This document shows, piece by piece, positions 7,561 to 49,602 of a stretch of 64,000 bases of DNA. The stretch's first letter is position 1. Every line of letters begins with the position of its first letter. The notes beneath the pieces were generated by a model. It was not told the DNA's origin. It searched no databases and saw only the letters and a list, made by a program, of their open reading frames with translations. The position numbers and the translations under genes were made by a program. The stretch is from positions 1,070,624 through 1,134,623 of the forward strand of contig JBFLYH010000002.1 in NCBI GenBank assembly GCA_040756875.1. The letters are read 5' to 3'. This DNA comes from a candidate division FCPU426 bacterium. GTDB lineage: Bacteria > Oederibacteriota > JAAXVQ01 > JAUVAV01.

Positions 7561-7730
7561 TAAGCTGAAATTTATTAAACTGGCATTTAATGTGCCGAAA
7601 AAGAAAGTTGTTACATATATGTCTGCGTCATTGAACAAATGCCAGCATCACCCGGCATGGTCCGGGTTGAAAGATAGATCGAATAGCCAAGAAGGTCGGG
7701 CGGACCGCTTGGTTTAATGAGGTGAGGACA

Positions 7731-16700: not shown

Positions 16701-19700
16701 CAAACGATCAATGGAACTGTCTACAAGAATTATCATACCATCACGAACGTACTGAACGGCAACCAGCAGCTCCAATCCATGACATTTGCCAGCGCCACGA
16801 GCATGGAAAACGGCGTCAAACGCGTGATTACAAACGGCGAATATGTCGGTTTTACGAATGCTGATACCAAGAAATGGGACGTCAGGCTGCAAAGCGGGCG
16901 GGTAGAGGAGTGGGGCGGCGAACAAACGATCAATGGGACTGTCTACAAGAATTATCATACCATCACGAACGTACTGAACGGAAACCAGCAGCTCCAATCC
17001 ATGACATTTGCCAGCGCCACGAGCATGGAAAACGGCATCAAACGCGTGATTACAAACGGCGAATATATCGGCTTCGAGAACGCCGACACTAAGAAATGGG
17101 ACGTCAAGCTGCAAAGCGGGCGGGTGGAGGAGTGGGGCGGCAGCCAAACGATGAATGGCGTTACGTACAAAGATTATCATACCATCACGAACGTGGTGAG
17201 TGGCGATCAGCAATTGCAATCTATGACCTTCGCCCGCGCCGAAAGCATGGAGAACGGCGTCAAACGCGTGATCACGAATGGGGAATATAAAGGATTCTAC
17301 AACCAGACTGATAAAAAATGGGATATCAGGCTGGAAAACGGGCTGGTAGATGAGTCGGTGGCGCAAAAGGTTGAAAATCAAACTGATCCGAAACTTGGGA
17401 CACTCACCATCACCAATTCCGATGTCCATACCATCACCCGGATTGAAAGCGGAAAGGCCGTGGAAGTCACGACAACCATCGGCCACTCGGTATCCAAGGA
17501 TTCGAGCGGAAGAGTCGTTACTGATGAAAAGGGCATCTCTAAAGTGCTGACCAATCCGCAGTTCAACGAAAAGGGTGTGCTGATCAGCGGCACGCAAAAA
17601 ATGACCGTCGAGGAACGCAAGGAATACAACGTTAAATTCGACGACCAAACCCAACGTTATATTGTTGCCGACGATAAAGTGACAAAGAGCTATAAAGTTG
17701 AATCAACCGCTGAAATCGAACAAGGCCGCGTTATAAGCAATCGGACTGAGATTCAAAGGATGACCACGTTGAACGAAAGCGGGCGGGTAGTGGCTGAGGA
17801 TTTCAACATCGTTCAATCGATGGCCATCTTGAAGACCTATACCAAAGGAGTATTCGGTTCGGATCGCGAAGTGGTGGTTAACATCACCGAGGGCAAATCC
17901 GGCAGCCAGGTCATCCTCAACGGTGACCGTGAGCATGCCATTGCCATGGGGGCAGGCGTCAAGGTCAGCGCGGATGGCGACAAGATCATCGTGCAGGATG
18001 CGCGCGGGGTCTTGCGGGAATTCACTGCCGGTGGCAAGGAGACGACAGGCTGGTTCCAGGCCCGGGCGAATGACTGGAATGCCTATTCGGCCAAGATCGA
18101 TGCGTTGGTTAATAAAGTAGAAACCGCCTGGAACGAAGGCAGGTATGGCATGGCGATTCTGCATGCCGGAAATTACTTGCTGTCCGGGACCTTGGACGCC
18201 CTGGTCTATGTTCTGCAGACCGCCTGGGCGGTAGTGGAAGGCGCGGTCGTGCTCTCGGTTAATGTGACGACGGCACCGTTTACAGGACTTTATACCATAG
18301 GCAGCAACCTGATTAACGGACGCGATTGGAATGAGGGTTTGTGGGATGCCATGACCCGGCCTGGCCAGGCGGTATTGGACGGCTTCAAAGGCGCGCTTAA
18401 TTTCGTCTTCAGCCCGCTGGATAAGGCATTGAATTGGGCGTCGGAAAAAGTGCTGGGCTGGGCTGAGGCGCTTACTGACACGGCGGAATGGGCCGCGGAT
18501 CATAATGATATAATTGGGGCCGTGATATTGTCAGCCGCAGCCATCGTCCTTAAAGTGGTTGGAGAAAACCTGCCGACCTTGGTCATCATCGCGGTCAGCT
18601 TTATTCCGGTGGTCGGCGGGGCCATTGCGACCATCATGCTGGCCCGCGATGCACTCACCCGGGGCTTGGGCAGCATGTTCGAATCTTTCTTCATCGAGCC
18701 CTTCATTAAGATCGGCACCGGCATCTACCAGTTGGCTACCATCTCGACCAATAAAACCGAGGTCTCGGTTACTCGACAGATCATCAATGCCACTTCACTG
18801 ATTGGAGGGGGCATCGTCGGTCTGGCGCTGGCCAAGATGATGTTAAAAGGCGCGATCGAGCAATTCAAGGCAGCGCGTGGCGAGATATCGTTGGCTCAAG
18901 TAAAAGGATATCTGCAGGAATTGGCGCAAGCCGGAGAACTGCATAAGGTTATGGGAAAGACGCTGGGCGAAATCGTCAAAGATGCCGGGATGAAGATGAA
19001 AGGCGAGCCAGCGTGGGCCAAATTCAAGTTCGATGATCTGACAGTTCCCCAGCTGCGGGGCGAAACGCTTGGCAATCTGATGTCCAAGCCCGGCGGCGCC
19101 GAGCTCCTGAAGAGTCTCTTCACCTATGGTGCAGAAGGCGGCGGATTCCGTATGAATGACCTTGCCCTGCCCAAAGCCAAGGAAATCGAAGTAGGCCGGG
19201 TTCAGAAGGCTATTGAGTTCCTATCTGAAAAAGCGGCGGAGAAAGTGGGCCTGGAGCTTCCGAAACAAACCCGGGTGATTGATCAACCTCTGGCTGAAGC
19301 GGTGAGGCCGGCTGATGTAGGTCTTTCCCGTCTGACCGGCATGGGGTCCGGATTGGCGACCTTTGCCGTGGAGACGATCAAGAGCCAGTTCCAGATGATG
19401 GCGCATGCCTTTGGTACCATACGCTCCATTATGACCACCACCTTCAAGGCCGGGTTGAACTTGGCCAGCAACCTGGTGGTGGAAAAAGCGGGCCTCGGAT
19501 ATACGGCCGGTTATCAAAAGGCCAGTGAAACAGTGCGGTCAGCGGTCAAGGATTTCGCCAAGACGAGCACGGGAGAATTCCTGCAAAAGTTCAGTTCCGA
19601 AGGCCTCTCTAATACGTTCAGCCGCGTTGCGGATTCGGTCCGGTCCGTGTCCAACCAATTGGCCAATTCCATGGCATCGGCCTTCAGCCGGCTGACAGGC

Positions 19701-22700
19701 AGTTCTGTCCGGTTGGCTTCGAATTTCAACCAGCCATTGGGAGAAGGGACCTATGCCAGAAAGGGCATGAGCGAACGGCCGGGCGCCGGCGTGGACGCTA
19801 ATGGAGTCAAGACCGAAGCTGGTCAGCAACGGTCGGCTATGCAGGACACGCAGGCCATGCTCAAAGGCGCACGCGAAGAATTGTCGACAGCACGTTCGAA
19901 TAAAGCGTCTGCGGAAGTAATCGGCCGCCTGGAAGCGAATGTACGGACCATAGAAGCGGCTGCCAAGAACTTGGAAACAGCCCTGAAAATCAAGGATCTG
20001 GAAGTAAGCCGCAGCACAGAGGGCAAAGCGCCTGAAACTGAACAAACCGCTCTGGAACGGCAGCAGCTGTCTTTGGCCAAAGACGCGATTGAAGGCAGAA
20101 ACACAGCCGAAAGCATACAAAAAGAAATAGCCAAGACAGAGGCGGACATCAGCAAATTGCAGGCCGAGGCCAAAACCGAAGCCGGTAAAACTGAAATCGA
20201 AAGCCTGACCGGCAAACTGAAAGGGTTGCAGGAGCAGCAGAAGCAGGCTGAACAGCAAATGAAAAATGCCGAACAGCAGTTGTCGCTTACCGACCAGATC
20301 CATCAGGCTCAACAAGATACCGGCCGTCTCAAGGGAGAATTGGACGAAGCCCGCAGCCAGAGAGACGCGGGTTCGCCCGAGGAGAGTTCGGCCAATGCCG
20401 CTTCGGTGCGCCGGCTGGAACAGGAAATATCCAAAACCCAGGCTGATGAAAAAGTCGGCCGGGAGCAGCAAAAGGTGCTTGATCTGCAAACCGAATTGTC
20501 CAAGGCCCATGCCCGGGGCGACTTGGCGGATTACGCTCAAATCGCGAAAGATCTGACTGCGGCCGAGCAGGGATTGCATCGATCCTTGACCGAGCAGAGT
20601 AATGCGCAGAAACAGTTCAATTCCTCGGTGGCCAAGGAAAGCCAGATGACTGTGTCCGGCAAACTGGAGGCCATGGCCCAGGCTTCTGGCATGAGTCGGG
20701 CGGTGCTGGAAACCAAAGTGGAGCAGGTCGTCGACAAGATAGGCGATCATACCCGGAGCCGGGCCGTAAAATCGGCTTTAGTGGACTTAATGAGCGGTAA
20801 CAGCCGTAACCCAGGCGAAGCCATGAAAGTATTGGAGCAAAACAGCCTCGGATTGAAAGCTTGCATGGAAGCCCTGGTGGCGAACGGTCTGGAAGCGCAG
20901 GCCATGAATTTCCTCGACCAGGTGGGAAAAACCAAGGGCGCGACTACGGCGGAACGCAACGCGGCGGCCGAATCCTTCGGGCTGCAGCCGCGGGGGTTGG
21001 AAGTGGAGTTGAACCGACAGTTGGGGGCCCAGCTTAAGGCGGAGAATCCGCTCGGCCTGGAAGGTGGATCTCGCCGCGGCATGACCAGGGAAGAGCGGAG
21101 TCAGCTGCTGAAGGACGTGGCTAAAAGTCTCACCTTGGAACAGTATAACCGTCTGATGCAGGCGCAGCTGAACGGCGAAAATATCACGAACCTGTTGAAA
21201 TCCATGCGGACCGAAGGCGCGGGAAAGAGCCTGAATGAAGTTCTCAAGGGAGATGTCGCAGGAAAAACCCAGGCGTTCGCGGAGCAATTGAGCAAGACCT
21301 TGAGCGAGGCCGGAGTGGAGATGAACGCCAGCCGGCGGCAGATGGTCAACGAAATTGCCGAGAAACTGACGCTGGAAAGCTATCGGCAATTGAGGTCGGA
21401 ATTGCTGACATCGCCTGATCCGGTGAAATCCTTGGAAACAGCTCTCCGGTCTGAGGAAAGCGTTATGCCGACGAAATCCGGGCAGAATGCAGCGGCTGAA
21501 CGTCTGTTGGGCGGGGAAAATAACCGGCTGGAGTCAAGCTACTCACCTGAGTTTGCCGAAACCCTTCAAGCATTCAGGGGTGAACTCGCGAAAAGCAACT
21601 CCGTGGATGAGGCGCTGCGTACAAAAGAAAACGTAGCCAAGGCGCTGGAGAAACTGACAAATGAAGTAGGGCAGCGTGAAGTGCAAAAACTGACTTCCAG
21701 CCTCAACGAGGCCCAAGTCAAGAACCTCTTGAAGGCCGAAACCGTTGAGATGGCCGAAGCCAGGCTTAAAGCGATGATGCAGGAATCGGCTGTTCAGCAA
21801 GCCGGCACGGAAGGAGCGGTCAATAGCCTCCAGCATGAAGTCAATACTCAAATGTCGCGGGTCGAAGGGCGTCTGGAACGACTGCAACAGGTGGAAGCGG
21901 CCAAACAAAAATTACACGACGCCAAACAGGACTATAACAACGCTAAAACGTTTGCGGACAAAGTGGCTGCGGAGAAAGCGGTCCAAAATGCTCAACAAAA
22001 CCTGCGCGTTACGGAGCTTCTGGCCGAGCGGAACCCTGCGGTCGGCAATGCCCTTGCCGAAGCCTGGGCCCGCTGGCAGGCGGAGCGGGGTCTGGCCAGC
22101 GCAGACCAGGTGCAATTGCGCATCCAGGTGGAGCAGGCGATCAGCTCCATTACCGATCCGGCCCTGAAGCAGTCCGTCAAAATGGAATTGGAACGCTTTA
22201 ATAAATTGCAGGAGTCGATCGAAAAGGATCAGGCGGCGCTGGGCCGTGCTAGCCGCTTTGGCAGCAGTAAGGGGCAGATCGAAGCACGGATGCTGGAAAA
22301 TATAAAGCAGCGGCAGAATCTGCTCGCCGAGTTGAACAAGTCCGGGCATGCAGACCGGTTGTTGGAATCCATGGAACTGCAAGGCATGACTTCGAGGAAA
22401 TTATTGGAACCGGCCGCAGGCCAGGCGGATGCGTTGGGGGCCACGATTAGAGATATACTAGGCAATTTGCGTGCAGAGCTGCTTCAGCCCAAAGCCTTAT
22501 CTGAAGCCCTAGGAGTGGACGTGACTAAGCTATGCCTAGAATTGGGACGCACCAGCGAAATATTCAATGAGAATGTAGTGCGCGAAACGATCGAGAAGAG
22601 TTTCCCTGAATTGGCTTCCAAGAGCGGTGCGATTATTGATGCCATGTCCAAGCAATTGCTTGCCGCAAATCTCCAGCCCGGGATATTGGCAAATGCGCTA

Positions 22701-25700
22701 GGCATAGCGGATGCATCTGCCTTGACCGGCTTGGTTGGGAAAGTTATGGAAAGCAATAAAACACTTTCCAAAACGGAAGTGGAAAACATTATTAAAGATA
22801 GTTTCCCGGAATTAATGGGCCGAAGCGCTGAAATAGCGGAGTTAGTAAGTAAACAGATGAAGTTCAGCTTCCCCACGATGGATGCCCTGCTGACCCAGGC
22901 CAACATTGCCAAGCAGCGCACAGAAATAGAAAAGCAGCTCGTTAAATCTGAAGCGCTTAAAGAAACCGGCATTGAAATAAACGGACAAACTCTGAAAATC
23001 ATCACTGAATTGATCGTGAGTTTCCAGCTGGATATAAATTACCGCAATTTTGCTCCCGAGTTGCCTATGCTGAGGTTCTTAGTGCGTCAAACAGAACTGC
23101 ATTATATGAATATGGAATTGCAAACGAAGAATCCGGCAATGAAAGTGGTTATCGGCGAGGCATTGCAACTGGCCATGGGCGGCGGCAAATCCTGTTCGCC
23201 CTTGGCTATGAAAATCGCAATGGATCTTTTCGCCCGAAACCACTCGGGAGTAGAGCCTCCGGCTATGTTATATATGACCGCGAACCCGACGTTGGTTAAG
23301 CAAATATTAGGCGAACATACTTTCATTAAGATGAGAAATGAAGGAAGGTTAGTAGAGCTTTCCAAGGAAGGAACGGAGGCTGAATTCAAAAAAGTTGTGG
23401 AAAGCGGATTCGAAAAAGGAAAGATGTACGTAACAGATAACGAAACGCTGAAACAAATCGTGCTTGATATGAGGAGTGAAGGCAAAACCGACCAGCAAAT
23501 CGCCAAACTGTTGCAAAAAGACCTTGGCTCCATCGGCTGGGACGAATTCCACGCGGCTTTCCACACCACGGATACCATCATCGGCGCCTCGGGCATTGCA
23601 CCGCTTTTAAGTCAGAAAGCCTTGAGCCAGCTCATGCCCATGACGATGAATCTGCTTAAAAATTACGCCGCGGTGCGGGAGTGGTTCAAGAGCAACGAAC
23701 TGGTCCGGCAAGGTAAAGAAAGCAAGCTGTTTGAAAATGTTGAGCAGGGGATGGGTAAAGAAGTCCGCGGCCAATTCCAGTTTACGCAGGAAGCGAAAGC
23801 GGAAATATTAGAACGGACCGGTCTGGATTACCGCAAAGCCAGCGACGCTTTCATTCTGGACAAAATTGCACAAACCTTGTCCATGAAGAACGGCAGGGAA
23901 TATTCGGGCCGATACAATGAAATCACTGGCCGAACCGAGTACGGCACCATGGAAGGTGGCGTAGGCAAACCGAACACTATTTTCGGCGACCAGATGCTGG
24001 CAACGTTTACCAATGCCGAGATCTTTCTCGAAGCCACCGGGCTAAAAGCCGAGCAGATCAGCCGCGAAGGATTTGCCGACACTTATCGTCCTTTCATGGA
24101 GTCCATGATCGAAGCTTTTGTGCATACGACGACCGAACGAGTGACCATGATGGAAGCCATGCACCTAGTCGGTTCGCAGAACATCGTAGGATTCTCCGGG
24201 ACGTTCGAAGGCATCCAGAATGTATTGCAAATGTGGGGTAAACAGCTGGTGCGTATCAACACCGAACCAGTGATTGACCTCATGCAAGTGGTTGGGAACG
24301 AAGCGTACTTCAGAGTGAAGATCGGGACAGATGTGCTGACCCTGGCCCGCGACATGCGGACCGGCGAAGTCAAGCTGACCCTGGGGCAGGAAGCCATTCA
24401 GGCCAATAAAGCCCTGGTGAATGACATTGTTTCGCTGATGGGCAAAAGGCTGGAAGTAAAGGGACTCGAGGCCGGGCAGACAATCAAAGTGGATGGCGTC
24501 CAGCGGAGCGTGAGCAGGGAGTGGCTCAATCGCGAAGGCGGACTGGATATTAAGAAATTGCAGGCGCGTTTTGGAGAAGGCGTGATTGTGCGCGAATTTA
24601 CCGGCGGCCGCCTCGTTTTGGATAACGTGTCCGTGAAAGTCACCGAAAAAATGGTCGATAAACCCATCCAGGGTGCGGAGAAATTCATCCGCCAACAGAT
24701 CGTGACCGGTGACTACAATGCGGCGCTCGGGGAATTGATGGGTGAAGTCAAGACGGCGTTGGGCCGGCAGGGCCGGACGGCGGAAATTAAAGACATCACC
24801 CGGGAAAGCGTAAGACGGTATCTCATGGAAAAAAATATCCAGGTGCCGCGTGAGACCGGTGCGGATATCGTTGAAGCCTTATTTAAAAACGGAGAATTGG
24901 CTACAAAGGTGTTGAAGGAAATGCTGCTACACCCAGGCGAAGGCAAAGTCCAATTGATACGGATCGACGGCATTGCACCGGAATTATGGACATATGCCAT
25001 GAAAGGCTTGGAATCACTAATTAAAACACCCGAGGGAGCTATGCAGGAGCGCGTGATTTTCGCCCCCAAGATCGGTGAAGGCTTGAATACCGTGGCGATC
25101 AAGGGCGATTTCATGAAGCGCATGGGTGCTGCCCTACACCAACTGGATATGCGCCCCCTGGATGTTTATCGTCAGACCATGAAGCGTTTGAACGTATATG
25201 AAGCCCGGGAGAACGGTCTGGACTTCAAACGCGCCCAGGGCCTGACCGGTATGTCCCTGGACTTCAACCGGCTGAAGAACGTCACCGGCAAGGAATACGG
25301 GGAGATGGAAGCGTTCGTCCAGGAAGTCAAGACGACGTTGGCCGGCGAAACCAGTCTGGGGGTTAAGGTGGAAAAGGGCGAATTGGCGGTGAACGATGCG
25401 GTTTCAGGCCGCAATGCCGAGCTGATCAAACGGTTCAATGACCTTCTGATCGGCGAAGGAAAAGTGGAGGAATTCCAGCAGGAAAGTGGAAAAACGGAGC
25501 TGGTTAATAAAAATTACAGCAGCCGGACTGAAGCGGGCGTGGCGAAAAGCATTCTGACCGAAGTGGATATGCAAAAAACCCGCGCGGCCCAGCAGACCCA
25601 AGCTGGAATCCAGTCGGAGACGACAGTGGATGTGGGCGTGGCCAAGGCCTCGCCCGAATACATGTCCAAGTTGGCCCGGAAAGTAGAGAGTAATCTGCCA

Positions 25701-28562
25701 GAAATCATGCGCAAACTCCAGGGCATCAATGATCTGGAAGCCCGTCTCAATGGTAGCAGCGAAGCACAGGGCAGGATATTGAAGGATGCGGCCTTGCCGC
25801 CTTCAGCCCTGCAAACGTATGGTTCCTGGACCAGGCTGGGCTGGATCGAGAACTTCGTGGACAGCCGCATCAGCGCGCTGAAGTTATCCAGTTCCAAGAT
25901 TCAACTGGTTAACGAGTACGCTAAAGCCTGGCAGGATCCGCAGTGGCAGCAACAGCATGCCGAGCAGGTGGCTGCGCTGCAAAGCCAGTACGGGTCGGAT
26001 TGGTTTGAGCCGGCCATGGCGGATAAGTTTGGAGCGGATTGGAAACTATATGAGAAACTGGGGACGGCGTTAGCCATTCAAACTCAAGGCTTGCCGTTGA
26101 TCGGACGGATACCCTTGGTCGGCAATGGTATGAGCAATTTAGTGGCGGCGCTGCTGACGAATAGGCAGATTAAAAACCTGCCCAGGCAGGAATACCAGGC
26201 CGTATTACAAAATGTGGCCAGTGTCAGCGAGAAACTGCCTGAATTGGCAGCTGACCCCGAAAATACCACGCTAACCTATCAAGGCCGGACCATGGATTTG
26301 CAGGGTGCAGAGCAGTACGTGCGCAGTCAAGTGAACGCTGCCAGCTATTATACGGCGGTCAACGGATTCAAGGTGGCAGATACGGTTTTGACTACGCCGA
26401 TCAAACCTCAGGATAAAGTGCAACCCACGCTAGTGCAGGCAGCGGCAGAGACGGCCTTGCAGCAGCGACAGTTGCCTGTCAGGATGGCGGAATGGGTCAA
26501 GGGTCAGTGGAGTGACCTCTTACGCGGCCTGCAGCAGTCCAAATTTGTCATACCATTCTTTAAAATTCAGGATGGTTGGATTGTACCTACAAAAGTGACT
26601 ACGTTGTTGGTCGGCGCCGCAATGGTAGGGCTGCTTAGCATGACCGGCTTGCCCATTCTCGGATTAGCGGGCGGACTTCTGCTTATGCCCATGTTGCAGC
26701 CGCTTTTGCAGCAGGCAACCAGGTTCCTGCCTGGGGCACAGGCCCAGGTTGGCCGCAAAGAAGCGTCGTTGATGGTACGCTTGGTTGCTCCAGTGGTTCT
26801 TTCCTTGTTGGTGGGCACGTTGCTGGGTTCGCCTGCCACGGGTGTGTGCGGTGCGATTTCGGCGGCTACCGGGACATTGACTGAAGGCACGTTGCGTACT
26901 TTGTCGGAGTCCAAATTCCGGGCTACAGTGAACCGCATCAGCGATTCCCGGCTGGGAGCCGGGGAGATGAAGGCGGATTCCCTGAGATTGGTGGAACGTT
27001 TCAAAGCCGAGGCCAAAGGAAAAGAGCAAGATGGCAAAGCGGTATATGGCATTCTGAAAGGACTGCTGTCCAAACCGGAATTTGGCGATATAACCTTGGA
27101 GGCGAGCGACTCCGCCCAATACTACGGCTATATGCATCTCGTCGCTGCGGTTTTGAGTCTGGTGCCGCGGGCCACGGAGAGCCTGGACCGGGTGGAACTG
27201 GGGCAGAACACGTCCAAGTCGGCGGCTGCCGAGCGAACCGGGGTTAGGGTAGACCAGCAGTCCATAAAATTCCTTAACCAACAATTCTCGGATATTTTGA
27301 TAACCCAGACATTGCTGGCGGTCAAGGGGCGGCTGTTCAGTGATGCACAGTCGTACTCCTTGAACGAAATGCTGCGGCAGCACCGGCTGTTCAAGGAATT
27401 CGGGAGCAACGCGCTGGTGGAATTCATGCGGCAGTATCTGGTGGACGGTGAAAATATGAAAGCCTTGGCCAGCCAGGATGAAACCCTGCGCGGTGTGTAT
27501 CAACAGGTAAAAGAGCGATTGGGCCGCGAATATGGGGAAAGGGATCTGCGGGATCTAACCGAGGCGGCCGGGGAGCTGGAGAATACCGCCTTTGGCCTTA
27601 TGAAAGGGAAGGCGGCGGATATCCGGCGCGAATCTGATCCGGAACAACGTCGCGGGCTGGAAGTGGCGTTCGAGGCGACTTTCGGGATCAATTATGTTGA
27701 TTATTTGAAACTGCAGAAATCGCCCTGGCAGCAGCAGTTATTGGGTTGGATTGCGGGCAAAGACCGTTTACAACGGACCGAGCAGCCGGTAATGACCGTG
27801 CGCAGCATGGCTCAGCAGTTGGTCGGTCTGGGCATGGTAGTGGCCGTGGCCGGCGGGTTGTTGTTCGGTCTGTTGAGCGGAGCTTTGCCAGTCCTCGTCG
27901 CGTCAGCTGGATTGCTGATCGCTGTAACCGGCGCGGCGGTGTGGCTGCAGGCCAGGTCTATTGCCTTTGGCCTGAACCCTGCGGCAGCGGTGGAAGAGTT
28001 GCTGGCAAGCACGCCGTTCATTTCGCGCCACCCGCGGATGGAGGCGGATGCGCAGCGGATCGCGCAACTGGCCGGAAAGGAAGAATTCGAACAGCGGAAA
28101 GTGTTCGCGGCGCAATACGGGATCAGTCACGAGACCTACCAGAAAATCGCACTAGCGACATTGATATCCGATCCGTATTTCACGAAAGCGGTGAATGGGT
28201 TGAGGATCGCGGGCACGGAGATGGTGTCGGAAACCATGCGCAATCGTGCCATCCGGGCCACCTTGGAGCACCTGCTGGCCGTGGCCGAATCCGATGCCAG
28301 CATGGAAACGAAGCTGGATTTAACCAGGGATTTGGCCCAAGTGCTTGGATTCCTTGGTTTCAACATCAGCTTGACGTACAAGAAGTATGCGGATGAACTG
28401 GCCGTGACCCTGACGCCGGAGGTAGTGCCGCGGACCCTGACGCAGGACTACAAGCTTGGACGGATCATCAAACGGCTGGAAGGGCTGGGCATCGGGTTGA
28501 AATTGGATGTGGCGCCGTTGCAGAAGCAGCCGAAGCTCAAGACTACGGGCAGCGCAGCTTAA
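7731..28562 (+). CDS. Giant protein A (~6,943 aa): signal peptide, acidic stalk, hydrophobic hairpin domain, TPR-like and beta-rich region with 74-aa repeats, second TM cluster, coiled coils, SecA-like ATPase module, C-terminal TM helices
   Basis: Uninterrupted 20.8-kb ORF (track 7722..28562). ATG 7731 follows the SD GAGGTGA. It has an upstream promoter and a downstream terminator and is homologous to the ORF at 49603. Domain calls come from motifs read by eye. Confidence 0.9.
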   Translation: MKTITQFWSQAAILSRQLWRVARERHRKVISLVLAMIFVFTMTGMDTILAYGFDNNRHENYDQQNDLLPPANPLEQAQPDAFISVNAPTDKKADVADTRLNVLKAEYGDLLSTVSLQTVAEKTLAGVSVDTALKWVAEVVAPKGEQPAGTQPEEETTEQPAVDPSLLADVATTSQGPLSLSLNLDGLSGKGRLSDETDLAQLPIPAEMLPKEITPSEQPETVEPAAVAQETQPSAQPLEAGLPKVDESAKPEQPVEGGQLPEIQVVEQPKDQGGETKVTETEETEKKNNAETSLADLTKQFLALLGMNDKLKEDTAAKTEETKLPEETTETGSKETVLPEDAQAKKDGTETLAEGEEKPKTEVEQPAAEEKPEGEEKVAKEEKEEDGEQPAEDKDNEGDEKRAELPDQVLRLLGLGEKDKETEKDTEVEGPDSLEDFFALLGDEERKEDGETSSKEVDLDVDALLDELNAQGIEPPKEIDEPASMLADLVDRPQTEEKPEETLLPETEQPVENTDTVLTDDTEIALVGPEAGMVEEEKEPKETEGTAPTENKPEETDGVEAASIHALPDVTQLRQEALLVNILGTDATQQPETNLAAEVSDAFKRGASMILGPDANLPESLSPATTQLEPAGVSEATLPATVGTIPQVFIEQISANLTAADEQGAAATQAGPEDIRGTRSSALADLLNVSEDESRVPTAPGVIINQQSTDRTPDYWAGGSAWDIARIYGHPEQPEQENPDPECTDFLGLAIVMFIFQGPKAMMDFFQNPSLETFMEMFMILTDPVYYIYKIVDALINFSWDTMQEFGEFANSPFGKLFMFIISVVLTIFTCGSAAPILIALIILIELIQTFVPLPKWLDIALSIVKAALGGWASAIKDTFKQAITEVVKNVIQAISDLIKTLTKDVLKAIIKAVLKETIVQILQEVLPEDLLFYMPLISIMADWLAAGLTEMFMGEDGKGFTDGFVKAFKQSFNITPETFSTFTGFVKFMTSPAMRAGLAFLIQSLFVNSGEENGAKAAQDRRAGAIWGAMASGFLGWVDASVSTRIPLTFMQQVGMFLFNFVRPVVAKTVSTIVSQYAPSDSNGGAKWGDNQKYFVANTWGTIAERMVPGYQVDQSGARWSWLPTEIASVFSSDSMSSGNASTAAGSMGDSKGIQGASAGQAGFLNGVQAAEQLGPANSEVQQAEMPAKVEAQSPISTDSHAVKEESEITESESPFNEMEQQLNLGQEIQNPNQNAPQQQQQNLEQQRSASGLPKQTEEKKAEAPSRSEQQIQQQQPKQQPEKQPEKLETPYEQPQYNQQESLPDNNNNEREELNSPSLDNSNRDNEMEVPQDPMQEVKDLKLPGAHMPQKGELKQGDELERLDEIKTPKGSTVEKTASEALNDGNGQGDGNGQGGGNGAGQGDNGVEAYQGVTQNMQMNLSQHREQLETMKQTGELPAKFAPAENSTVRTATLASDSIPTDSALGQVVENLTREGSLPYGGDFNLKVETFQNQAGNQIMAVSSIDASTGQTQLLALTEKIGNEHITTTFRENTEGPGAVANVYAGDQKGDALMANDFAIPDLDVKRGLGELTKGSGLSGREQAKAGGERLLEGDQLEETGETSRGSDRNRPGENKDQDAMAAGAFKGGKGSGPGGENSGKAEGWNQGSDATLYKGENGGLEVKGSMDALKQVMDASGQVDLSKLSGRQNADGTMTYEAPGVQITATPAALNEATAGGSSLDMSRLQPVAGEQLPATLTNNDGLDIRGSPQALDKLKDANGQLDLKQFSAQTMKDGTVKLQGPEGVEISGTPDALAKAAGKENQLDLGKFQPKSSEAQAGKTTVTEPPKNFEAPPAEQNDKAVGEGTSLISSNKEIDPSRRDVKMSEQEGPRPATPDKPQEITSGQVEVPKKYNLFQTAMAKLFTLGSWEPGTTMATTYTFEVDGRTVSMQFVPERTGSGNAVGSMDVKGSDGETYKVTLGSNGEVTGVMQYVVAGGFWKGTLALRPVGGNEAFAFNEWGEMDRLYTKNADGSWTLSKERKYTQDAQGRWVGAMIDANVAGQLSKDELRNLILAMNADPAVLAQNRSYQDYLKDLKLTPGTAEYDAKLKELALPLGLSAIQQAQSYVNQLLSQGATGSKLESAYRTLALAEQKVYSLDQTKVNFASLVEHARLSQDAPLMLKAADYQLSQGDKSGAVVTLQAALTSLRNLPPTPLTMDQALRGLELLQQAGQTETQVYQTTLTFVENQLKVSALTPLTLSQSLRLNEVAGSAVVSDERLMQLRNAVESVVNDNQAKIKAGSSYTVQGFGVISKSATGDVTVQTQVSEDTAASITFKAVKEERPFEPAGRLEMEQVVVVDNLGVLQMFAAQPEGFALTTVGLTKTVTIGNKTFTTRILSDINNTTGQAAGTIKVDDKIYSVRVNLETGDVQVKLEAEKPAGKLDLSAWNRARLTFVNGEAYFTINGKTEKAQVINQVTAEQLQQLNVPANQAKVIADLLKGRSGYLASDGTIFVGTQQEIEAGNYFVAGRNQFGTNQNDLGYLAKFVDGNLQRVDLSDGKIISVLSKDLSRYTVTQYSEDGKRVAVSLYEKSALVGTKLILRDINNVALLYDAKGQLTQASRESLRHLQAQGVQFNEVQGGFTLRYKDQESAFTANGRPLATGNKEQGAGEGGSKEGTSEQQKSGTSSQQTLEFFDQQAITLNIASYKDPDGIRIKTNNFEYTTITVQASTNGEVTKVVLKSTVTAQVTQRIVSNDSQTMTETGRFRNSGELEKGTRHLVASKLTQTDDKTGQTITRTNVDSLSEIEDGKEKSNRMTFELEELRNQAGNLIRMVERGEYISKMVGGKLETHLENGRVQEWGSGTINGVQYTNYHTTTNIVNGEQRLESMTFARAESMENGVKRVITNGRYQGFYNEAAKKWDVKLQSGRVEEWGGSQTMNGTTYTNYHTVTNVVNGNQRLQSMSFASATSMENGVKRVITNGLYQGFYNEAAKKWDIKLQSGRVEEWGGEQTINGTVYKNYHTITNVLNGNQQLQSMTFASATSMENGVKRVITNGEYVGFTNADTKKWDVRLQSGRVEEWGGEQTINGTVYKNYHTITNVLNGNQQLQSMTFASATSMENGIKRVITNGEYIGFENADTKKWDVKLQSGRVEEWGGSQTMNGVTYKDYHTITNVVSGDQQLQSMTFARAESMENGVKRVITNGEYKGFYNQTDKKWDIRLENGLVDESVAQKVENQTDPKLGTLTITNSDVHTITRIESGKAVEVTTTIGHSVSKDSSGRVVTDEKGISKVLTNPQFNEKGVLISGTQKMTVEERKEYNVKFDDQTQRYIVADDKVTKSYKVESTAEIEQGRVISNRTEIQRMTTLNESGRVVAEDFNIVQSMAILKTYTKGVFGSDREVVVNITEGKSGSQVILNGDREHAIAMGAGVKVSADGDKIIVQDARGVLREFTAGGKETTGWFQARANDWNAYSAKIDALVNKVETAWNEGRYGMAILHAGNYLLSGTLDALVYVLQTAWAVVEGAVVLSVNVTTAPFTGLYTIGSNLINGRDWNEGLWDAMTRPGQAVLDGFKGALNFVFSPLDKALNWASEKVLGWAEALTDTAEWAADHNDIIGAVILSAAAIVLKVVGENLPTLVIIAVSFIPVVGGAIATIMLARDALTRGLGSMFESFFIEPFIKIGTGIYQLATISTNKTEVSVTRQIINATSLIGGGIVGLALAKMMLKGAIEQFKAARGEISLAQVKGYLQELAQAGELHKVMGKTLGEIVKDAGMKMKGEPAWAKFKFDDLTVPQLRGETLGNLMSKPGGAELLKSLFTYGAEGGGFRMNDLALPKAKEIEVGRVQKAIEFLSEKAAEKVGLELPKQTRVIDQPLAEAVRPADVGLSRLTGMGSGLATFAVETIKSQFQMMAHAFGTIRSIMTTTFKAGLNLASNLVVEKAGLGYTAGYQKASETVRSAVKDFAKTSTGEFLQKFSSEGLSNTFSRVADSVRSVSNQLANSMASAFSRLTGSSVRLASNFNQPLGEGTYARKGMSERPGAGVDANGVKTEAGQQRSAMQDTQAMLKGAREELSTARSNKASAEVIGRLEANVRTIEAAAKNLETALKIKDLEVSRSTEGKAPETEQTALERQQLSLAKDAIEGRNTAESIQKEIAKTEADISKLQAEAKTEAGKTEIESLTGKLKGLQEQQKQAEQQMKNAEQQLSLTDQIHQAQQDTGRLKGELDEARSQRDAGSPEESSANAASVRRLEQEISKTQADEKVGREQQKVLDLQTELSKAHARGDLADYAQIAKDLTAAEQGLHRSLTEQSNAQKQFNSSVAKESQMTVSGKLEAMAQASGMSRAVLETKVEQVVDKIGDHTRSRAVKSALVDLMSGNSRNPGEAMKVLEQNSLGLKACMEALVANGLEAQAMNFLDQVGKTKGATTAERNAAAESFGLQPRGLEVELNRQLGAQLKAENPLGLEGGSRRGMTREERSQLLKDVAKSLTLEQYNRLMQAQLNGENITNLLKSMRTEGAGKSLNEVLKGDVAGKTQAFAEQLSKTLSEAGVEMNASRRQMVNEIAEKLTLESYRQLRSELLTSPDPVKSLETALRSEESVMPTKSGQNAAAERLLGGENNRLESSYSPEFAETLQAFRGELAKSNSVDEALRTKENVAKALEKLTNEVGQREVQKLTSSLNEAQVKNLLKAETVEMAEARLKAMMQESAVQQAGTEGAVNSLQHEVNTQMSRVEGRLERLQQVEAAKQKLHDAKQDYNNAKTFADKVAAEKAVQNAQQNLRVTELLAERNPAVGNALAEAWARWQAERGLASADQVQLRIQVEQAISSITDPALKQSVKMELERFNKLQESIEKDQAALGRASRFGSSKGQIEARMLENIKQRQNLLAELNKSGHADRLLESMELQGMTSRKLLEPAAGQADALGATIRDILGNLRAELLQPKALSEALGVDVTKLCLELGRTSEIFNENVVRETIEKSFPELASKSGAIIDAMSKQLLAANLQPGILANALGIADASALTGLVGKVMESNKTLSKTEVENIIKDSFPELMGRSAEIAELVSKQMKFSFPTMDALLTQANIAKQRTEIEKQLVKSEALKETGIEINGQTLKIITELIVSFQLDINYRNFAPELPMLRFLVRQTELHYMNMELQTKNPAMKVVIGEALQLAMGGGKSCSPLAMKIAMDLFARNHSGVEPPAMLYMTANPTLVKQILGEHTFIKMRNEGRLVELSKEGTEAEFKKVVESGFEKGKMYVTDNETLKQIVLDMRSEGKTDQQIAKLLQKDLGSIGWDEFHAAFHTTDTIIGASGIAPLLSQKALSQLMPMTMNLLKNYAAVREWFKSNELVRQGKESKLFENVEQGMGKEVRGQFQFTQEAKAEILERTGLDYRKASDAFILDKIAQTLSMKNGREYSGRYNEITGRTEYGTMEGGVGKPNTIFGDQMLATFTNAEIFLEATGLKAEQISREGFADTYRPFMESMIEAFVHTTTERVTMMEAMHLVGSQNIVGFSGTFEGIQNVLQMWGKQLVRINTEPVIDLMQVVGNEAYFRVKIGTDVLTLARDMRTGEVKLTLGQEAIQANKALVNDIVSLMGKRLEVKGLEAGQTIKVDGVQRSVSREWLNREGGLDIKKLQARFGEGVIVREFTGGRLVLDNVSVKVTEKMVDKPIQGAEKFIRQQIVTGDYNAALGELMGEVKTALGRQGRTAEIKDITRESVRRYLMEKNIQVPRETGADIVEALFKNGELATKVLKEMLLHPGEGKVQLIRIDGIAPELWTYAMKGLESLIKTPEGAMQERVIFAPKIGEGLNTVAIKGDFMKRMGAALHQLDMRPLDVYRQTMKRLNVYEARENGLDFKRAQGLTGMSLDFNRLKNVTGKEYGEMEAFVQEVKTTLAGETSLGVKVEKGELAVNDAVSGRNAELIKRFNDLLIGEGKVEEFQQESGKTELVNKNYSSRTEAGVAKSILTEVDMQKTRAAQQTQAGIQSETTVDVGVAKASPEYMSKLARKVESNLPEIMRKLQGINDLEARLNGSSEAQGRILKDAALPPSALQTYGSWTRLGWIENFVDSRISALKLSSSKIQLVNEYAKAWQDPQWQQQHAEQVAALQSQYGSDWFEPAMADKFGADWKLYEKLGTALAIQTQGLPLIGRIPLVGNGMSNLVAALLTNRQIKNLPRQEYQAVLQNVASVSEKLPELAADPENTTLTYQGRTMDLQGAEQYVRSQVNAASYYTAVNGFKVADTVLTTPIKPQDKVQPTLVQAAAETALQQRQLPVRMAEWVKGQWSDLLRGLQQSKFVIPFFKIQDGWIVPTKVTTLLVGAAMVGLLSMTGLPILGLAGGLLLMPMLQPLLQQATRFLPGAQAQVGRKEASLMVRLVAPVVLSLLVGTLLGSPATGVCGAISAATGTLTEGTLRTLSESKFRATVNRISDSRLGAGEMKADSLRLVERFKAEAKGKEQDGKAVYGILKGLLSKPEFGDITLEASDSAQYYGYMHLVAAVLSLVPRATESLDRVELGQNTSKSAAAERTGVRVDQQSIKFLNQQFSDILITQTLLAVKGRLFSDAQSYSLNEMLRQHRLFKEFGSNALVEFMRQYLVDGENMKALASQDETLRGVYQQVKERLGREYGERDLRDLTEAAGELENTAFGLMKGKAADIRRESDPEQRRGLEVAFEATFGINYVDYLKLQKSPWQQQLLGWIAGKDRLQRTEQPVMTVRSMAQQLVGLGMVVAVAGGLLFGLLSGALPVLVASAGLLIAVTGAAVWLQARSIAFGLNPAAAVEELLASTPFISRHPRMEADAQRIAQLAGKEEFEQRKVFAAQYGISHETYQKIALATLISDPYFTKAVNGLRIAGTEMVSETMRNRAIRATLEHLLAVAESDASMETKLDLTRDLAQVLGFLGFNISLTYKKYADELAVTLTPEVVPRTLTQDYKLGRIIKRLEGLGIGLKLDVAPLQKQPKLKTTGSAA
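12711..13169 (+). repeat. Four degenerate ~40-aa coding repeats in giant A
   Basis: GLEVKGSMDAL..QVDLSKL / GVQITATPAAL..SLDMSRL / GLDIRGSPQAL..QLDLKQF / GVEISGTPDAL..QLDLGKF. Confidence 0.6.
16224..17330 (+). repeat. Five tandem 222-bp (74-aa) coding repeats in giant A
   Basis: The ATG of MENG recurs at 16359, 16581, 16803, 17025 and 17247. Unit: MENGVKRVITNG.Y.GF.N...KKWD(V/I)KLQSGRVEEWGG.QT.NG..Y.NYHT.TNV.NG.Q.LQSM.FA.A.S. Confidence 0.95.
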
Positions 28563-30802: not shown

Positions 30803-30875
30803 TTAGGCAAATAGAAAAATACGCCTAATTGGCGCCTTGCTCTATATATTTTTCAGGTTAAAGGGGGTTTTGGCC

Positions 30876-33800
30876 ATGACTACCATCACTGGTCAACAGA
30901 GACTGCACTACGGATTCTGGAATCGAACCGCGTGGTTGGGGACACTCGCCTTACTGGGGACTCTGCTCCTCTTTGTAGGGGTATCTATGTCCTCGGCGGC
31001 CAGCAGCGCTGAGGAGCGCCTCCTGCCTCAGATCCTGGCCCAACTAGACGAGCAAGGTAAGAAAGTCAAAAGCTCCACGGTCCTGGATGTCAATGGCCAA
31101 CCCCACATCACGGTCATGTTGCTCAACGGCGAAGTGCGCAAGTACAACGAGAAGGGCCAACTGACCGAAGTCCGAGATCCTTATGGCAAAATCACTCTGT
31201 ACGAAGACGGCATGCCGATCGAAGAGCGGGATGCCAACGGCGGCGTGATGGCGCGTTACCAATATTTCCGCTCCGTAAGCGGCAAAATGCAAAAAATGGT
31301 CAAGCGCAGCGCGGCTGGCGTGGTGACGAAGATCTTCGACGACGACGGCAATCCTGTTCAAGCTACGGATTCGCAGGGCACCAAGGTTTTCACCAATTAC
31401 GTTAAAAACGAAAAAGGTAAGACGGTCGGATATACGGAGACGGATCTGGCAACGAGCAAGACCAACCGCATGATTCTCGATCCCAAGAACGGGGAAGTGA
31501 TCGCTCGGATCGACGAGAACAACATCCGTACGGATATCGAAACCCTGTATAACCAGCAGGGCGAAAAAATGCAGACCATCGAACGTGATACAGCTGGCAA
31601 TGTCACGATCAAGAAATTTGAAAACGAACAGATGGTGGAGCAGGTCGAAAACGGCATTAAAACCACCTATGAAAACATTTTAAACGACAAAGGCGTTCTG
31701 GTTCAGAAGAAGGAAGTCAAGTTCATCGCCACCAACGGCGGAATGATCGAAGAGGTGACGGTGAAGGATTACGACGATCAGGGCCGCGTCATACGGGTGA
31801 AGGACAAGGAAGGCGAGCACGAATATACCTACGAAGTCAATCTGGACGGCCGGATCACGGCCCGACATGAACTTCTCAAACCGGCGACCGGCGCTAGGGC
31901 CAAGGAGAAAGTAACATACTATGACGAGGCCGGCCGGGTAATCGGGCTGGATGAAGAAGGCCGCAAGACCAAAATCGTCAATGTTTTGGATGAAAACGGC
32001 AACATTGTCTCGGCAACCGAGTACATCACCTATGACTTTAACGGCAAGTTGTTCACGGATATGGTGAAAAAGACATTCGATGGCAAAGGTCACCTGTTGA
32101 GCAAAATCGACCAAAATGGGCAGCGGACGGATTACAGCTACGACGGCAAAGGCAACAGGATTCGGAGTCAGGTTGGGGATGAAATCACGACTTATACATA
32201 TGATGGCAACAACAATATGGTTTCCAGTTTCACTCAGGATTATAAAAGCCGGACCTTGACCGAATACGATCAAAAGACCAAATTGGCAGAACGCAAGATT
32301 TTGATTAAAAACAGCGGTGTGGTAGAAGTGACTGCCTATGGCCTTACCCAAGATGGCCGCCGGATGAATTTTACGGTGACTGCATTTGGAGTTAAAACCA
32401 ACATCTGCAAGGATTCCGAGAGCGACCAGCCCGAAAAAACCATCTTCAGCAAATACAACGGTAAAGTTATTGTCACCAATTATCGCTATACGGGCGAACA
32501 TTTGGTGTCCAGCACCGAGGAAGGGCCTATGGGAGCGACCGAGACCCGCTATAACGTCGGCGGTAAGCCGCTTCACTCTTTGCAGACAGATAAATGGGGC
32601 CGTACGCAGGAAACCGATTACCGGTACGAAAAAGGTGTGCTGGCGGAATCACTGATGGTGGACAAGAAGGGCCGCACCAGCACTTATTACAACAACCATG
32701 GCGATGCGGAAAAGATCGTCAGAGTCAACACTATTGGATTCCCGCGCCGGGCCGATGAAGAACGGAGCTATAAGGATGGGATTTTGGTCCGCAGCGTGTC
32801 CCGCGATGTTAAGGGCGAAACCGTCACGGATTATGATCAAAACGAACAGGCTGCTAAAGTGCACCGCACCAACAAACACGGATTCCCGCGCCAAAACTGG
32901 GTGGAGAATATTTACGATGCGGGCGGCGATATCACCGAGAGCCGGCAGACGGACAGCAGGGGTTATACGGTCAACAAATTCGACCACGATGGTCTCATGA
33001 CCGACAGCGAACGGGTGGATATACACGGGTATCCCAAACGGAAACAGACTGCATACGACTATATCAACGGTGAGCTTGTCAGCAGCATCACTGACGATGA
33101 CCGGGGGACGACCTTCAATAGCTTTGATAAAGACGGACTGATGAGAGATAGCCGGCGGGTGAAGAAGTTCGGGTTCCCGCGCGAAGAGCGTACGTCCTAC
33201 GAGTACGACGGCAATGCCTACATGATCTACAGCAAAACCGAGGATGAGAACGGCACGACCCAGAATTGGTTCAATATCGACGAGCTGGTGGCCGTTTCCT
33301 TCCGGAAAAATCTCTATGGGCATGCCCGCGACCAATGGACTGTGAACGAGTATGACGGCGAAGGGTTCCTGACCACAAGCAAGGAGACCGATCTGAGGGG
33401 GTCGACAGTAACCGAGTTTAATATTGATGGGCTACCGATCAAGTCGTTCCGTGTTGACCACTACGGCGTAGAATATTCCCGTGAAACATTAACGGTCAAC
33501 GAGTTCGACGACCAGGGGTTCATGACCATCTCGAAGAGCAAGAATCTTCTAACCACAGTCGAGAAGGAAATGGACAAGGATGCTTTGGTGCAGGTGCAGA
33601 GGCAAAATGACAATTATGGCGTGGTCTTCGGCCGTTATAAAGTGACGGACGAATACGTTTATGACGGGCATGGACGGCTGCAGACAAACGTCACAACCGA
33701 TAAACTCGGGCAGACGACCAGCAAGTATGATATCCATGGCGACGCGGTCGAGACCCTGAGGATTGCGACCATCGGTCTGGGCGCTTCGCGGGAGTCGTTT

Positions 33801-49412: not shown

Positions 49413-49602
49413 TATATTGAGGTAAAAAGGGGAAAAATATTTAAATATTGTATTTTATTTCGGTAAATATTTTATTCCGCTTTTGCGGATGTAAAAAAAT
49501 GGAAAGGTTTGTATAGAAATGGGTAAAAAAGTGGGAGTGCATATTTTCCAAAGCGGTTATAACACACCGGCGACAGGGAAGCCGGGCGGGCGGGGTGAGA
49601 CC

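Follow-up and report, generated by a model that had tools for sequence, protein, structure and literature searches.

The window analysed here, 64,000 nucleotides long, is the final 64 kb of one contig in the 3.22 Mb, seven-contig genome of an uncultured groundwater bacterium, and three giant open reading frames (ORFs), termed giants A, B and C, follow one another on its forward strand (Table 1). Three quarters along giant A lies a module, defined here as 934 residues, in which the initial annotation had recognized a SecA-like ATPase inside an exported giant protein. The ORF and its SecA-like motifs are confirmed, and the predicted structure of the module supports the SecA-like reading, down to an inserted domain with the fold of the preprotein cross-linking domain (PPXD), through which SecA binds preproteins.

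The motifs stand in SecA order within one ORF of 6,946 residues. They span giant A residues 5149-5826 and lie at, or within three codons of, the positions first assigned to them. Position 23541, given for Walker B, is the Asp codon of WDEFH, and position 24189, given for motif III VGFSGT, falls one codon inside that motif. Conservation was followed in a family alignment, A1, of the module and 15 homologues (16 sequences, identities 20-53%). The Walker A lysine K97 and the Walker B residues D215 and E216 are invariant in 16/16, and Y348, G354, T360, G363 and D364 form a further invariant block. Counted along giant A, K97 is K5156 and E216 is E5275. The residue after the Walker A lysine is Ser or Thr in 13 of the 16 sequences and Glu or Gln in the other three. 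The three most distant homologues (loci L013, L014 and L020) read GYGKED or GGGKQF at Walker A and keep the Walker B Asp-Glu pair. The colinear pattern G.GK[ST] / DE.[HD] / [ST]GT at SecA-like spacing occurs once in giant A and not at all in giants B and C; when the residues of giant A were shuffled 2000 times, one shuffle contained it.

Table 1. Features of the three giants and of the module in giant A, in window coordinates. NBD1 and NBD2 are the first and second ATPase folds; residues named by letter and number are numbered within the module.
Feature	Window position	Strand	Remarks
Giant A	7722..28562	+	single open frame of 6,946 residues, no in-frame stop; module at residues 5060-5993
N-terminal hydrophobic segment, giant A residues 30-54	7809..7883	+	preceded by basic stretch; signal peptide or anchor; giant C N-terminus similar
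Hydrophobic cluster, giant A residues 3493-3708	18198..18845	+	divides repeat-rich middle from coiled-coil and motor part
Module, 934 residues	22899..25700	+	
Helical lead, module residues 1-85	22899..23153	+	invariant E66; predicted helices
NBD1, first part	23154..23594	+	invariant G94, G96, K97, T127, Y177, D215, E216, G229; strand/helix order in model
Walker A QLAMGGGKS	23166-23192	+	NBD1
YMTANPTLV (LYMTANPTL)	within 23259-23297	+	NBD1
MYVTDNE	23424-23444	+	NBD1
Walker B WDEFH	23538-23552	+	NBD1
TDTIIGASG	23568-23594	+	NBD1
PPXD-fold insert in NBD1	23601..24113	+	folded alone as 23562-24146
MKNGREY...NTIFGD	23883-23990	+	inside insert
NBD1, second part	24114..24263	+	HTTTERVTMMEAM and motif III SGT (24195-24203); invariant H409, E419, G425, T435, G438
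NBD2, starting with INTEP junction	24264..25268	+	invariant E456, G691, R718, G726, G728, N730, Q759, R763, R778
Lineage-specific 72-residue insertion in NBD2	24459..24674	+	low model confidence
Motif V-like APKIGEGLN	25062-25088	+	NBD2
Motif VI-like RQTMKRLN	25170-25193	+	NBD2
Helical C-terminal part	25269..25700	+	conserved L-x-E-[IV]-D (25554-25568); invariant E888, D890; helices 797-814, 834-851, 881-901, 920-931
Post-module hydrophobic segments, giant A residues 6287-6376	26580..26849	+	basic flanks and loop; read as hairpins entered from cytoplasmic side
Last hydrophobic stretch (49 residues), giant A residues 6696-6744	27807..27953	+	probably hairpin
Giant B	30837..49208	+	6,123 residues; signal-like N-terminus, RHS repeat match, then tandem 57- and 54-residue units
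Giant C	49519..64000	+	at least 4,827 residues; paralogue of giant A; runs off contig ahead of its module

An AlphaFold2 model of the module built on alignment A1 (pLDDT 78, pTM 0.77) shows two RecA-like folds, an insert of PPXD fold in NBD1 at the place where SecA carries its PPXD, and a helical tail. The SecA-like reading had implied tandem RecA folds closer to SecA than to nucleic-acid helicases, and the model bears out both expectations. The tandem folds are evident from the isolated Escherichia coli SecA motor 3bxz_B, which aligns on model residues 20-797 (Z 15.0, root-mean-square deviation (rmsd) 3.9 Å, 356 residues aligned). In a Foldseek search of the PDB, SecA or SecA2 accounts for all 19 rows listed above rank 22, at E values between 3.1e-10 (3jv2_B) and 1.1e-5, and the first non-SecA structure is DinG at 1.2e-5, followed by MDA5, Rad54 and XPD. 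VIA-align, applied as a second look to Foldseek's top chains, superposes the model best on SecY-bound SecA (6itc_A, Z 16.8, rmsd 4.4 Å, 529 aligned; 5eul_A, Z 16.1, 527 aligned), then on free SecA structures (Z about 15-16, 410-426 aligned), DinG (Z 14.1, 365 aligned) and MDA5 (Z 13.5, 358 aligned). A search of 48,161 PDB chains that was independent of Foldseek placed SecA2 or SecA at ranks 1-3 (Z 15.8 for 4uaq_A, then 15.0 and 14.8), with DinG next at 13.9 and 13.8. Since about 110 extra residues align when the SecA clamp is closed, the insert was suspected to superpose on the PPXD, and it was therefore folded alone.

Modelled by itself from 17 sequences, the insert reached a pLDDT of 84.4. 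When it was compared with 48,161 PDB representatives only two chains attained Z 5, both by their PPXD: Mycobacterium tuberculosis SecA2 (4uaq_A, residues 240-359; Z 7.0, rmsd 3.2 Å, 103 aligned) and, at Z 6.7, an MBP-PPXD chimera. No other chain scored above 3.9. Among the 219 chains aligned by Foldseek, the best was Bacillus subtilis SecA over residues 227-349 (Z 8.1, rmsd 3.2 Å, 116 aligned), and all eight entries at Z of 5 or more were SecA, SecA2 or the PPXD chimera, aligned on the PPXD; the next unrelated chain reached 2.5. Foldseek run with the insert alone returned nothing at E 0.001 or better, its top two rows being PPXD-containing chains at E 1.8 and 1.9. The PPXD-like insert of the initial annotation thus stands as a fold. 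One of its motifs, EITGRT, does not hold up: the 15 homologues in the alignment have gaps or other residues there, and the likeness to SecA EFTGR is confined to giant A.

These comparisons also bear on whether the module could be a superfamily 2 helicase or translocase of the DinG/XPD or RIG-I type that carries an accessory insert and works on DNA or RNA at the membrane. Such helicases share with the module the tandem RecA-like folds with accessory inserts and a Walker B of the DExH type, common in many helicases, and DinG, MDA5, RIG-I and Hel308 score Z 12.8-14.1, 1-3 Z units under SecA. However, SecA comes first in every search, and the aligned length is up to 534 residues for SecA against about 350-365 for the helicases. 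The insert alone matches the PPXD only, with no helicase accessory domain seen among its structural matches, and a Pfam search of giant A at E up to 1 gave only chance-level rows for nucleic-acid-binding families. We regard a helicase at this place as very improbable.

The second ATPase fold is changed relative to that of SecA. R497 of motif V (GRGTD) and R531, R533 and R536 of motif VI (QLRGRxGRQG) are invariant in 39 SecAs compared. The module reads GEGLN and Q759-T-M-K-R763-L-N-V, so that one of the four SecA arginines appears to be kept (R763, equivalent to R533), in a register judged by eye on the order of motifs and strands. The degenerate NBD2 described by the initial annotation is consistent with the alignment, and the loss of most motif V and VI arginines suggests that hydrolysis is probably slow or partner-dependent. 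NBD2 also holds a 72-residue insertion that is missing from the 15 other aligned homologues and has a pLDDT below 50 over most of its length; it is real, because it is 76% identical in the closest relative (P0004). Four helices follow NBD2 before the model ends at module residue 934, and the alignments to 6itc_A extend to chain residue 726. The invariant L-x-E-[IV]-D in this tail recalls LLEYDD in the scaffold helix of the genome's own SecA, and from this likeness the helix is possibly the start of a scaffold helix.

The membrane setting of giant A was assessed by a Kyte-Doolittle hydropathy scan together with charge counts. Besides the hydrophobic segments in Table 1, the scan marks a cluster of membrane segments around residues 814-952. 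Flanking stretches carry a net acidic charge ahead of residue 3594 and a net basic one from 3709 on, as do all flanks and loops of the late segments. Coiled coil and helical repeats occupy about 1,350 residues ahead of the module. From this charge pattern we infer that the repeat-rich first half lies outside and that the last ~3,200 residues, with the module, are cytoplasmic and pinned to the membrane by hairpins. The description of giant A as an exported protein accordingly needs revision: it looks rather like a polytopic membrane protein, whose C-terminal third with the module is probably cytoplasmic.

Taken together, we assign a probability of about 0.6 to the reading that the module is a very diverged SecA-type motor inside a giant polytopic membrane protein, membrane-tethered and ATP-binding, that moves segments of giant proteins. 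In such a mechanism the module would sit in the cytoplasm, tethered through the giant's own hydrophobic hairpins, and bind ATP; an unfolded polypeptide would be clamped between the PPXD-like domain and NBD2 and fed across the inner membrane. The likely cargo would be the outside parts of newly made giants or the neighbouring secreted repeat giants, with giant B a candidate cargo or partner. Since the motor is translated some 5,000 residues after the parts that need to cross, action in trans or after translation would be likelier than strict self-threading.

Several observations weigh against a SecA-type motor, beginning with the silence of sequence comparison. The profile check that the initial annotation had proposed came out negative: across the 16 family members, Pfam at E up to 10 gave 0/16 matches to SecA_DEAD (PF07517) and 0/16 to SecA_PP_bind (PF01043). 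NCBIfam returned nothing for the module, and HMMER against PDB sequences returned nothing relevant, either with the single sequence or with the profile. Aligned by hhalign to the genome's own SecA, to 13 SecAs of the order and to 39 diverse SecAs, the family profile reached E 0.27-0.74, which is not significant. The module fold itself was built on an alignment of only 16 sequences, and in the Foldseek-independent search of the whole model SecA stands only 1-2 Z units above DinG. Three of the 16 homologues read GKE or GKQ where GKS/T is expected; the motif V arginine has become Glu, and two of the three motif VI arginines have become Met and Val. The two-helix finger and wing, with which SecA engages SecY, are not displayed in the 934-residue model. 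No counterpart of the zinc-binding C-terminal tail of the genome's own SecA, CPCGSGKKYKKCHG, was found in giant A, which has six Cys in total and no C-x-C. The hydropathy and charge basis of the topology, finally, is crude.

The sole hhalign match to the 39-sequence SecA profile (E 0.27), non-significant as it is, is colinear from Walker A to TPLIISG. It sets YMTANPTLV on VTVNDYLA, YVTDNE on YGTNNE, WDEFH on VDEVD and TDTIIGASG on TPLIISG, and in doing so reproduces the register in which the motifs had first been paired with those of SecA. Protein-language-model features place the module near SecA as well: among the matches listed, the nearest named clusters all carry SecA_DEAD (score 0.90, 177 of 256 features in common). 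Pfam over the module and over the whole of giant A, searched in four pieces, gave nothing relevant, and for the 16 members chance-level rows only. The tie to DUF3638 that the Walker A motif had suggested is not seen, with no match in giant A or, at E up to 10, in the 16 members.

The absence of any significant sequence-profile match is what a chance resemblance of motifs in a low-information giant sequence, with no real ATPase domain behind it, would predict. That explanation is refuted by the confidence of the predicted fold, the retention of the motifs in 16 homologues down to 20% identity, the rarity of the pattern among shuffles and structural matches that are specific to SecA and its PPXD, and we give it next to no weight.

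A more serious alternative, which we nevertheless consider unlikely, is a SecA-derived pseudo-motor: the fold would be kept as a nucleotide-binding switch or rigid scaffold with little or no turnover and no threading of polypeptide, and it might, for example, make the state of the membrane segments depend on a partner or on how much ATP there is. The arginine losses in motifs V and VI and the three homologues that lack the Walker A Ser/Thr would fit such a loss of function, as would the scaffold, wing and finger not displayed in the model, and the position of the module behind its long stretch of coiled coil and helical repeats. On the other hand, K97, D215, E216, R763, Q759 and the SGT of motif III are invariant down to 20% identity, which argues for retained nucleotide chemistry, and the preprotein-binding PPXD fold is retained at high model confidence.

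Measured against housekeeping SecA (B. subtilis, PDB 1TF5, 3JV2 and 6ITC; the genome's own 884-residue protein), the module has the same order of NBD1, PPXD within NBD1, NBD2 and helices, and its model superposes best on the SecY-bound form. The two have in common Walker A GxGK[ST], the Walker B Asp-Glu pair, YxTxNE, T(D/P)xIIxxSG, SGT and the motif VI spacing Q-x-x-x-R. Unlike SecA, the module has no detectable sequence similarity to the family, reads DEFH at Walker B instead of DEVD and GEGLN at motif V instead of GRGTD, carries the 72-residue insert in NBD2 and lacks the zinc-finger tail and, in the inferred register, two motif VI arginines. SecA is also a soluble protein of about 900 residues, whereas the module belongs to a membrane giant and is preceded by some 5,060 residues of it.

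SecA-like motors in giant membrane proteins have already been published. According to the preprint that reported them (West-Roberts et al. 2023; bioRxiv 10.1101/2023.11.21.568195), divergent domains of the SecA DEAD and preprotein-binding types occur, together with many membrane segments, in the products of most full-length Omnitrophota giant genes and of some Actinobacteria ones. These SecA domains are described there as fast-evolving and without scaffold and wing, with a normal SecA encoded alongside, and they are proposed to export the giant that carries them or else accessory proteins. Giant A resembles these giants, as described in that text, in combining a SecA-type motor and a PPXD-type domain with a many-segment membrane protein in a genome that has a separate normal SecA. 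It differs in that their domains were found by domain annotation, whereas the module family escapes Pfam in 16/16, a comparison made by description only. Pfam also found in giant A no glycosyl hydrolase, peptidase or dockerin domain, in contrast to the Omnitrophota giants of that preprint. The phylum differs from Omnitrophota too, since the closest named record to the genome's own SecA is Candidatus Firestonebacteria, at 79% identity. Among long proteins of Omnitrophota, a 2026 preprint records a SecA_DEAD architecture cluster with 20 members.

Extra motors beside the housekeeping SecA are also known as stand-alone proteins. In Planctomycetes, Verrucomicrobia and other groups, secondary SecA_DEAD proteins are described that occur with HlyD, M50 and TolC-type genes (Kamneva, Poudel and Ward 2015, PMC4452313). 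Like these proteins, as outlined there, and like SecA2 (M. tuberculosis, 4UAQ), giant A would supply a motor in addition to SecA; theirs have a reduced or missing wing-scaffold. Unlike the secondary SecA_DEAD proteins, which stand alone and are detected by Pfam, the module is part of a giant, and no HlyD, M50 or TolC-type gene was seen beside giant A.

Against this background the new elements are a separate family undetected by sequence models, a different phylum, a changed NBD2 and coexistence, in sister genomes, with giants that fuse SecY to SecA. How proteins of 5,000-85,000 residues enter and cross the membrane is an open question to which the SecA-like motors inside them are the main clue. 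As such a motor can diverge past all sequence annotation, Pfam-based counts of SecA domains in giants are too low. The survival of the PPXD and of the ATP-binding residues, without that of the NBD2 arginines, marks the SecA parts needed for this job, and at about 930 residues the module could be expressed and assayed by itself.

The module family is confined to giant ORFs of one bacterial order in a candidate phylum. A phmmer search of 1.84 billion representative proteins returned 12 relatives, all giant proteins or fragments of them, two being this genome's own contig-end pieces. Within the phylum, 11 of 99 genomes gave a module match: two families of one order (8/10 and 2/4 genomes) and the window's own genome, the remaining 84 genomes having none. 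The open frames that contain the genome matches all measure between 1,305 and 7,831 residues. A search of a genome-contig collection with the single module found zero relatives, and 431 residues from module residue 801 on found no usable match in the ESM Atlas.

The two contig-end pieces carry the later parts of two more modules, at the end of contig C3 (reverse strand) and the start of C5 (forward strand; loci L003 and L004). Their frames, of 1,305 and 1,441 residues, share 78% identity with each other over 581 residues and 58-70% with a complete giant of 6,706 residues in a genome of the same genus (G032); these paralogous modules are evidently where the assembly broke. In G032 the 6,706-residue giant lies directly downstream of a B-type giant, an arrangement matching that of giant C here, so giant C very probably carries a module as well, divided between an unassembled gap and one of these two contig ends. 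The initial annotation had asked whether giant C contains the module past position 64000. The window stops there, at the contig end, and what could be found is the later module parts at the two other contig ends. Across the family, 6 of the 18 A-type places are followed on the same strand, no more than about 7 kb further downstream, by a B-like N-terminus; at the other 12, many of them on short contigs, none was found with that query.

Giants of a second design occur in the same order. Loci L048-L052 (genomes G031, G030, G022, G025 and G027) comprise open frames of 13,678, 11,265 and 9,337 residues plus fragments. In 5/5 of them a SecY domain (PF00344, E 1e-39 to 1e-47) is followed about 100 residues later by SecA_DEAD in the same frame, and in 3/5 SecA_PP_bind is above the cut-off. 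All five genomes (G022, G025, G027, G030 and G031) hold the module as well. In the window's own genome no such giant was found, only its normal SecY. Like giant A, these proteins place a SecA-type motor with a PPXD in a giant ORF, theirs of 9,000-14,000 residues; unlike them, with a full SecY and a SecA_DEAD visible to Pfam, giant A has no SecY match. The two kinds of motor do not align with each other: hhalign of the module family against the modules of the SecY-SecA giants gave nothing (probability 1.8%), and the family profile run against these giants with hmmsearch met only the Walker A stretch, with a few bits. The available parts of West-Roberts et al. 2023 and of the 2026 Omnitrophota preprint make no mention of SecY-SecA fusion giants, and a literature search found nothing on SecA in Firestonebacteria and nothing relevant on SecA-SecY fusion giant proteins.

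With SecY, SecA_DEAD and SecA_PP_bind in one frame in sister genomes, this lineage builds translocon parts into its giants. A speculative and rather doubtful extension of the SecA-type motor reading is that the order evolved two separate private Sec machines in giants. One would be the SecY-SecA fusion; the other would be the module, as a stripped SecA lineage too diverged for sequence recognition, held by hairpins and working without the classical NBD2 arginines. It would move giant cargo, and the route might be the membrane segments of the giant instead of SecYEG. The dedicated cargo would then be other giant copies or neighbouring YD/RHS-type repeat giants. One small lineage with both the module and the fusions is, in any case, a good place for comparing two designs.

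Elsewhere in the genome lie its normal SecA (884 residues, locus L031:1483-4134) and normal SecY. A search of the whole genome with PF07517 matched that SecA and one weak unrelated ORF; giant A was not matched. Around giant A itself, the neighbours are two Lnt genes, a split transketolase, a GAF-HD protein and Memo. The two Lnt (apolipoprotein N-acyltransferase) genes are paralogous and flank giant A at 5738-7408 (forward strand) and 28628-30310 (reverse strand), the second of them sitting between giants A and B on the strand opposite to both.

All three giants contain tandem repeats. Giant B has, at 34335-43922, 23.4 copies of a 171-bp unit (57 residues) followed by 34.7 copies of a 162-bp unit (54 residues). 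Giant A has 4.5 copies of a 222-bp unit (74 residues) at 16356-17355, and at the corresponding place in giant C a 162-bp unit is repeated 4.8 times (57852-58625). The N-termini of giants A (7722-7890) and C (49600-49740) follow a common pattern of a basic stretch, a hydrophobic segment and MTG(M/L)D..I.A..F, which may be a family-specific export signal.

Long frames are frequent in this genome: 41 stop-to-stop frames of at least 1,500 residues were listed, at least one of them an antisense shadow, and among them are frames of 12,551 (the longest), 12,450, 10,037, 8,807 and 7,689 residues. Four of the seven contigs start or finish inside frames of this class. A search for sequencing runs listed a single DNA dataset, possibly that of the source sample, and none from RNA. 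Beside the 10,037-residue giant, an ORF of 844 residues (L032) has a sub-threshold SecA_DEAD match (C1:1086794-1086982, reverse strand; E 2.4e-4, model positions 99-161), and similar ORFs of 698-895 residues recur in related genomes.

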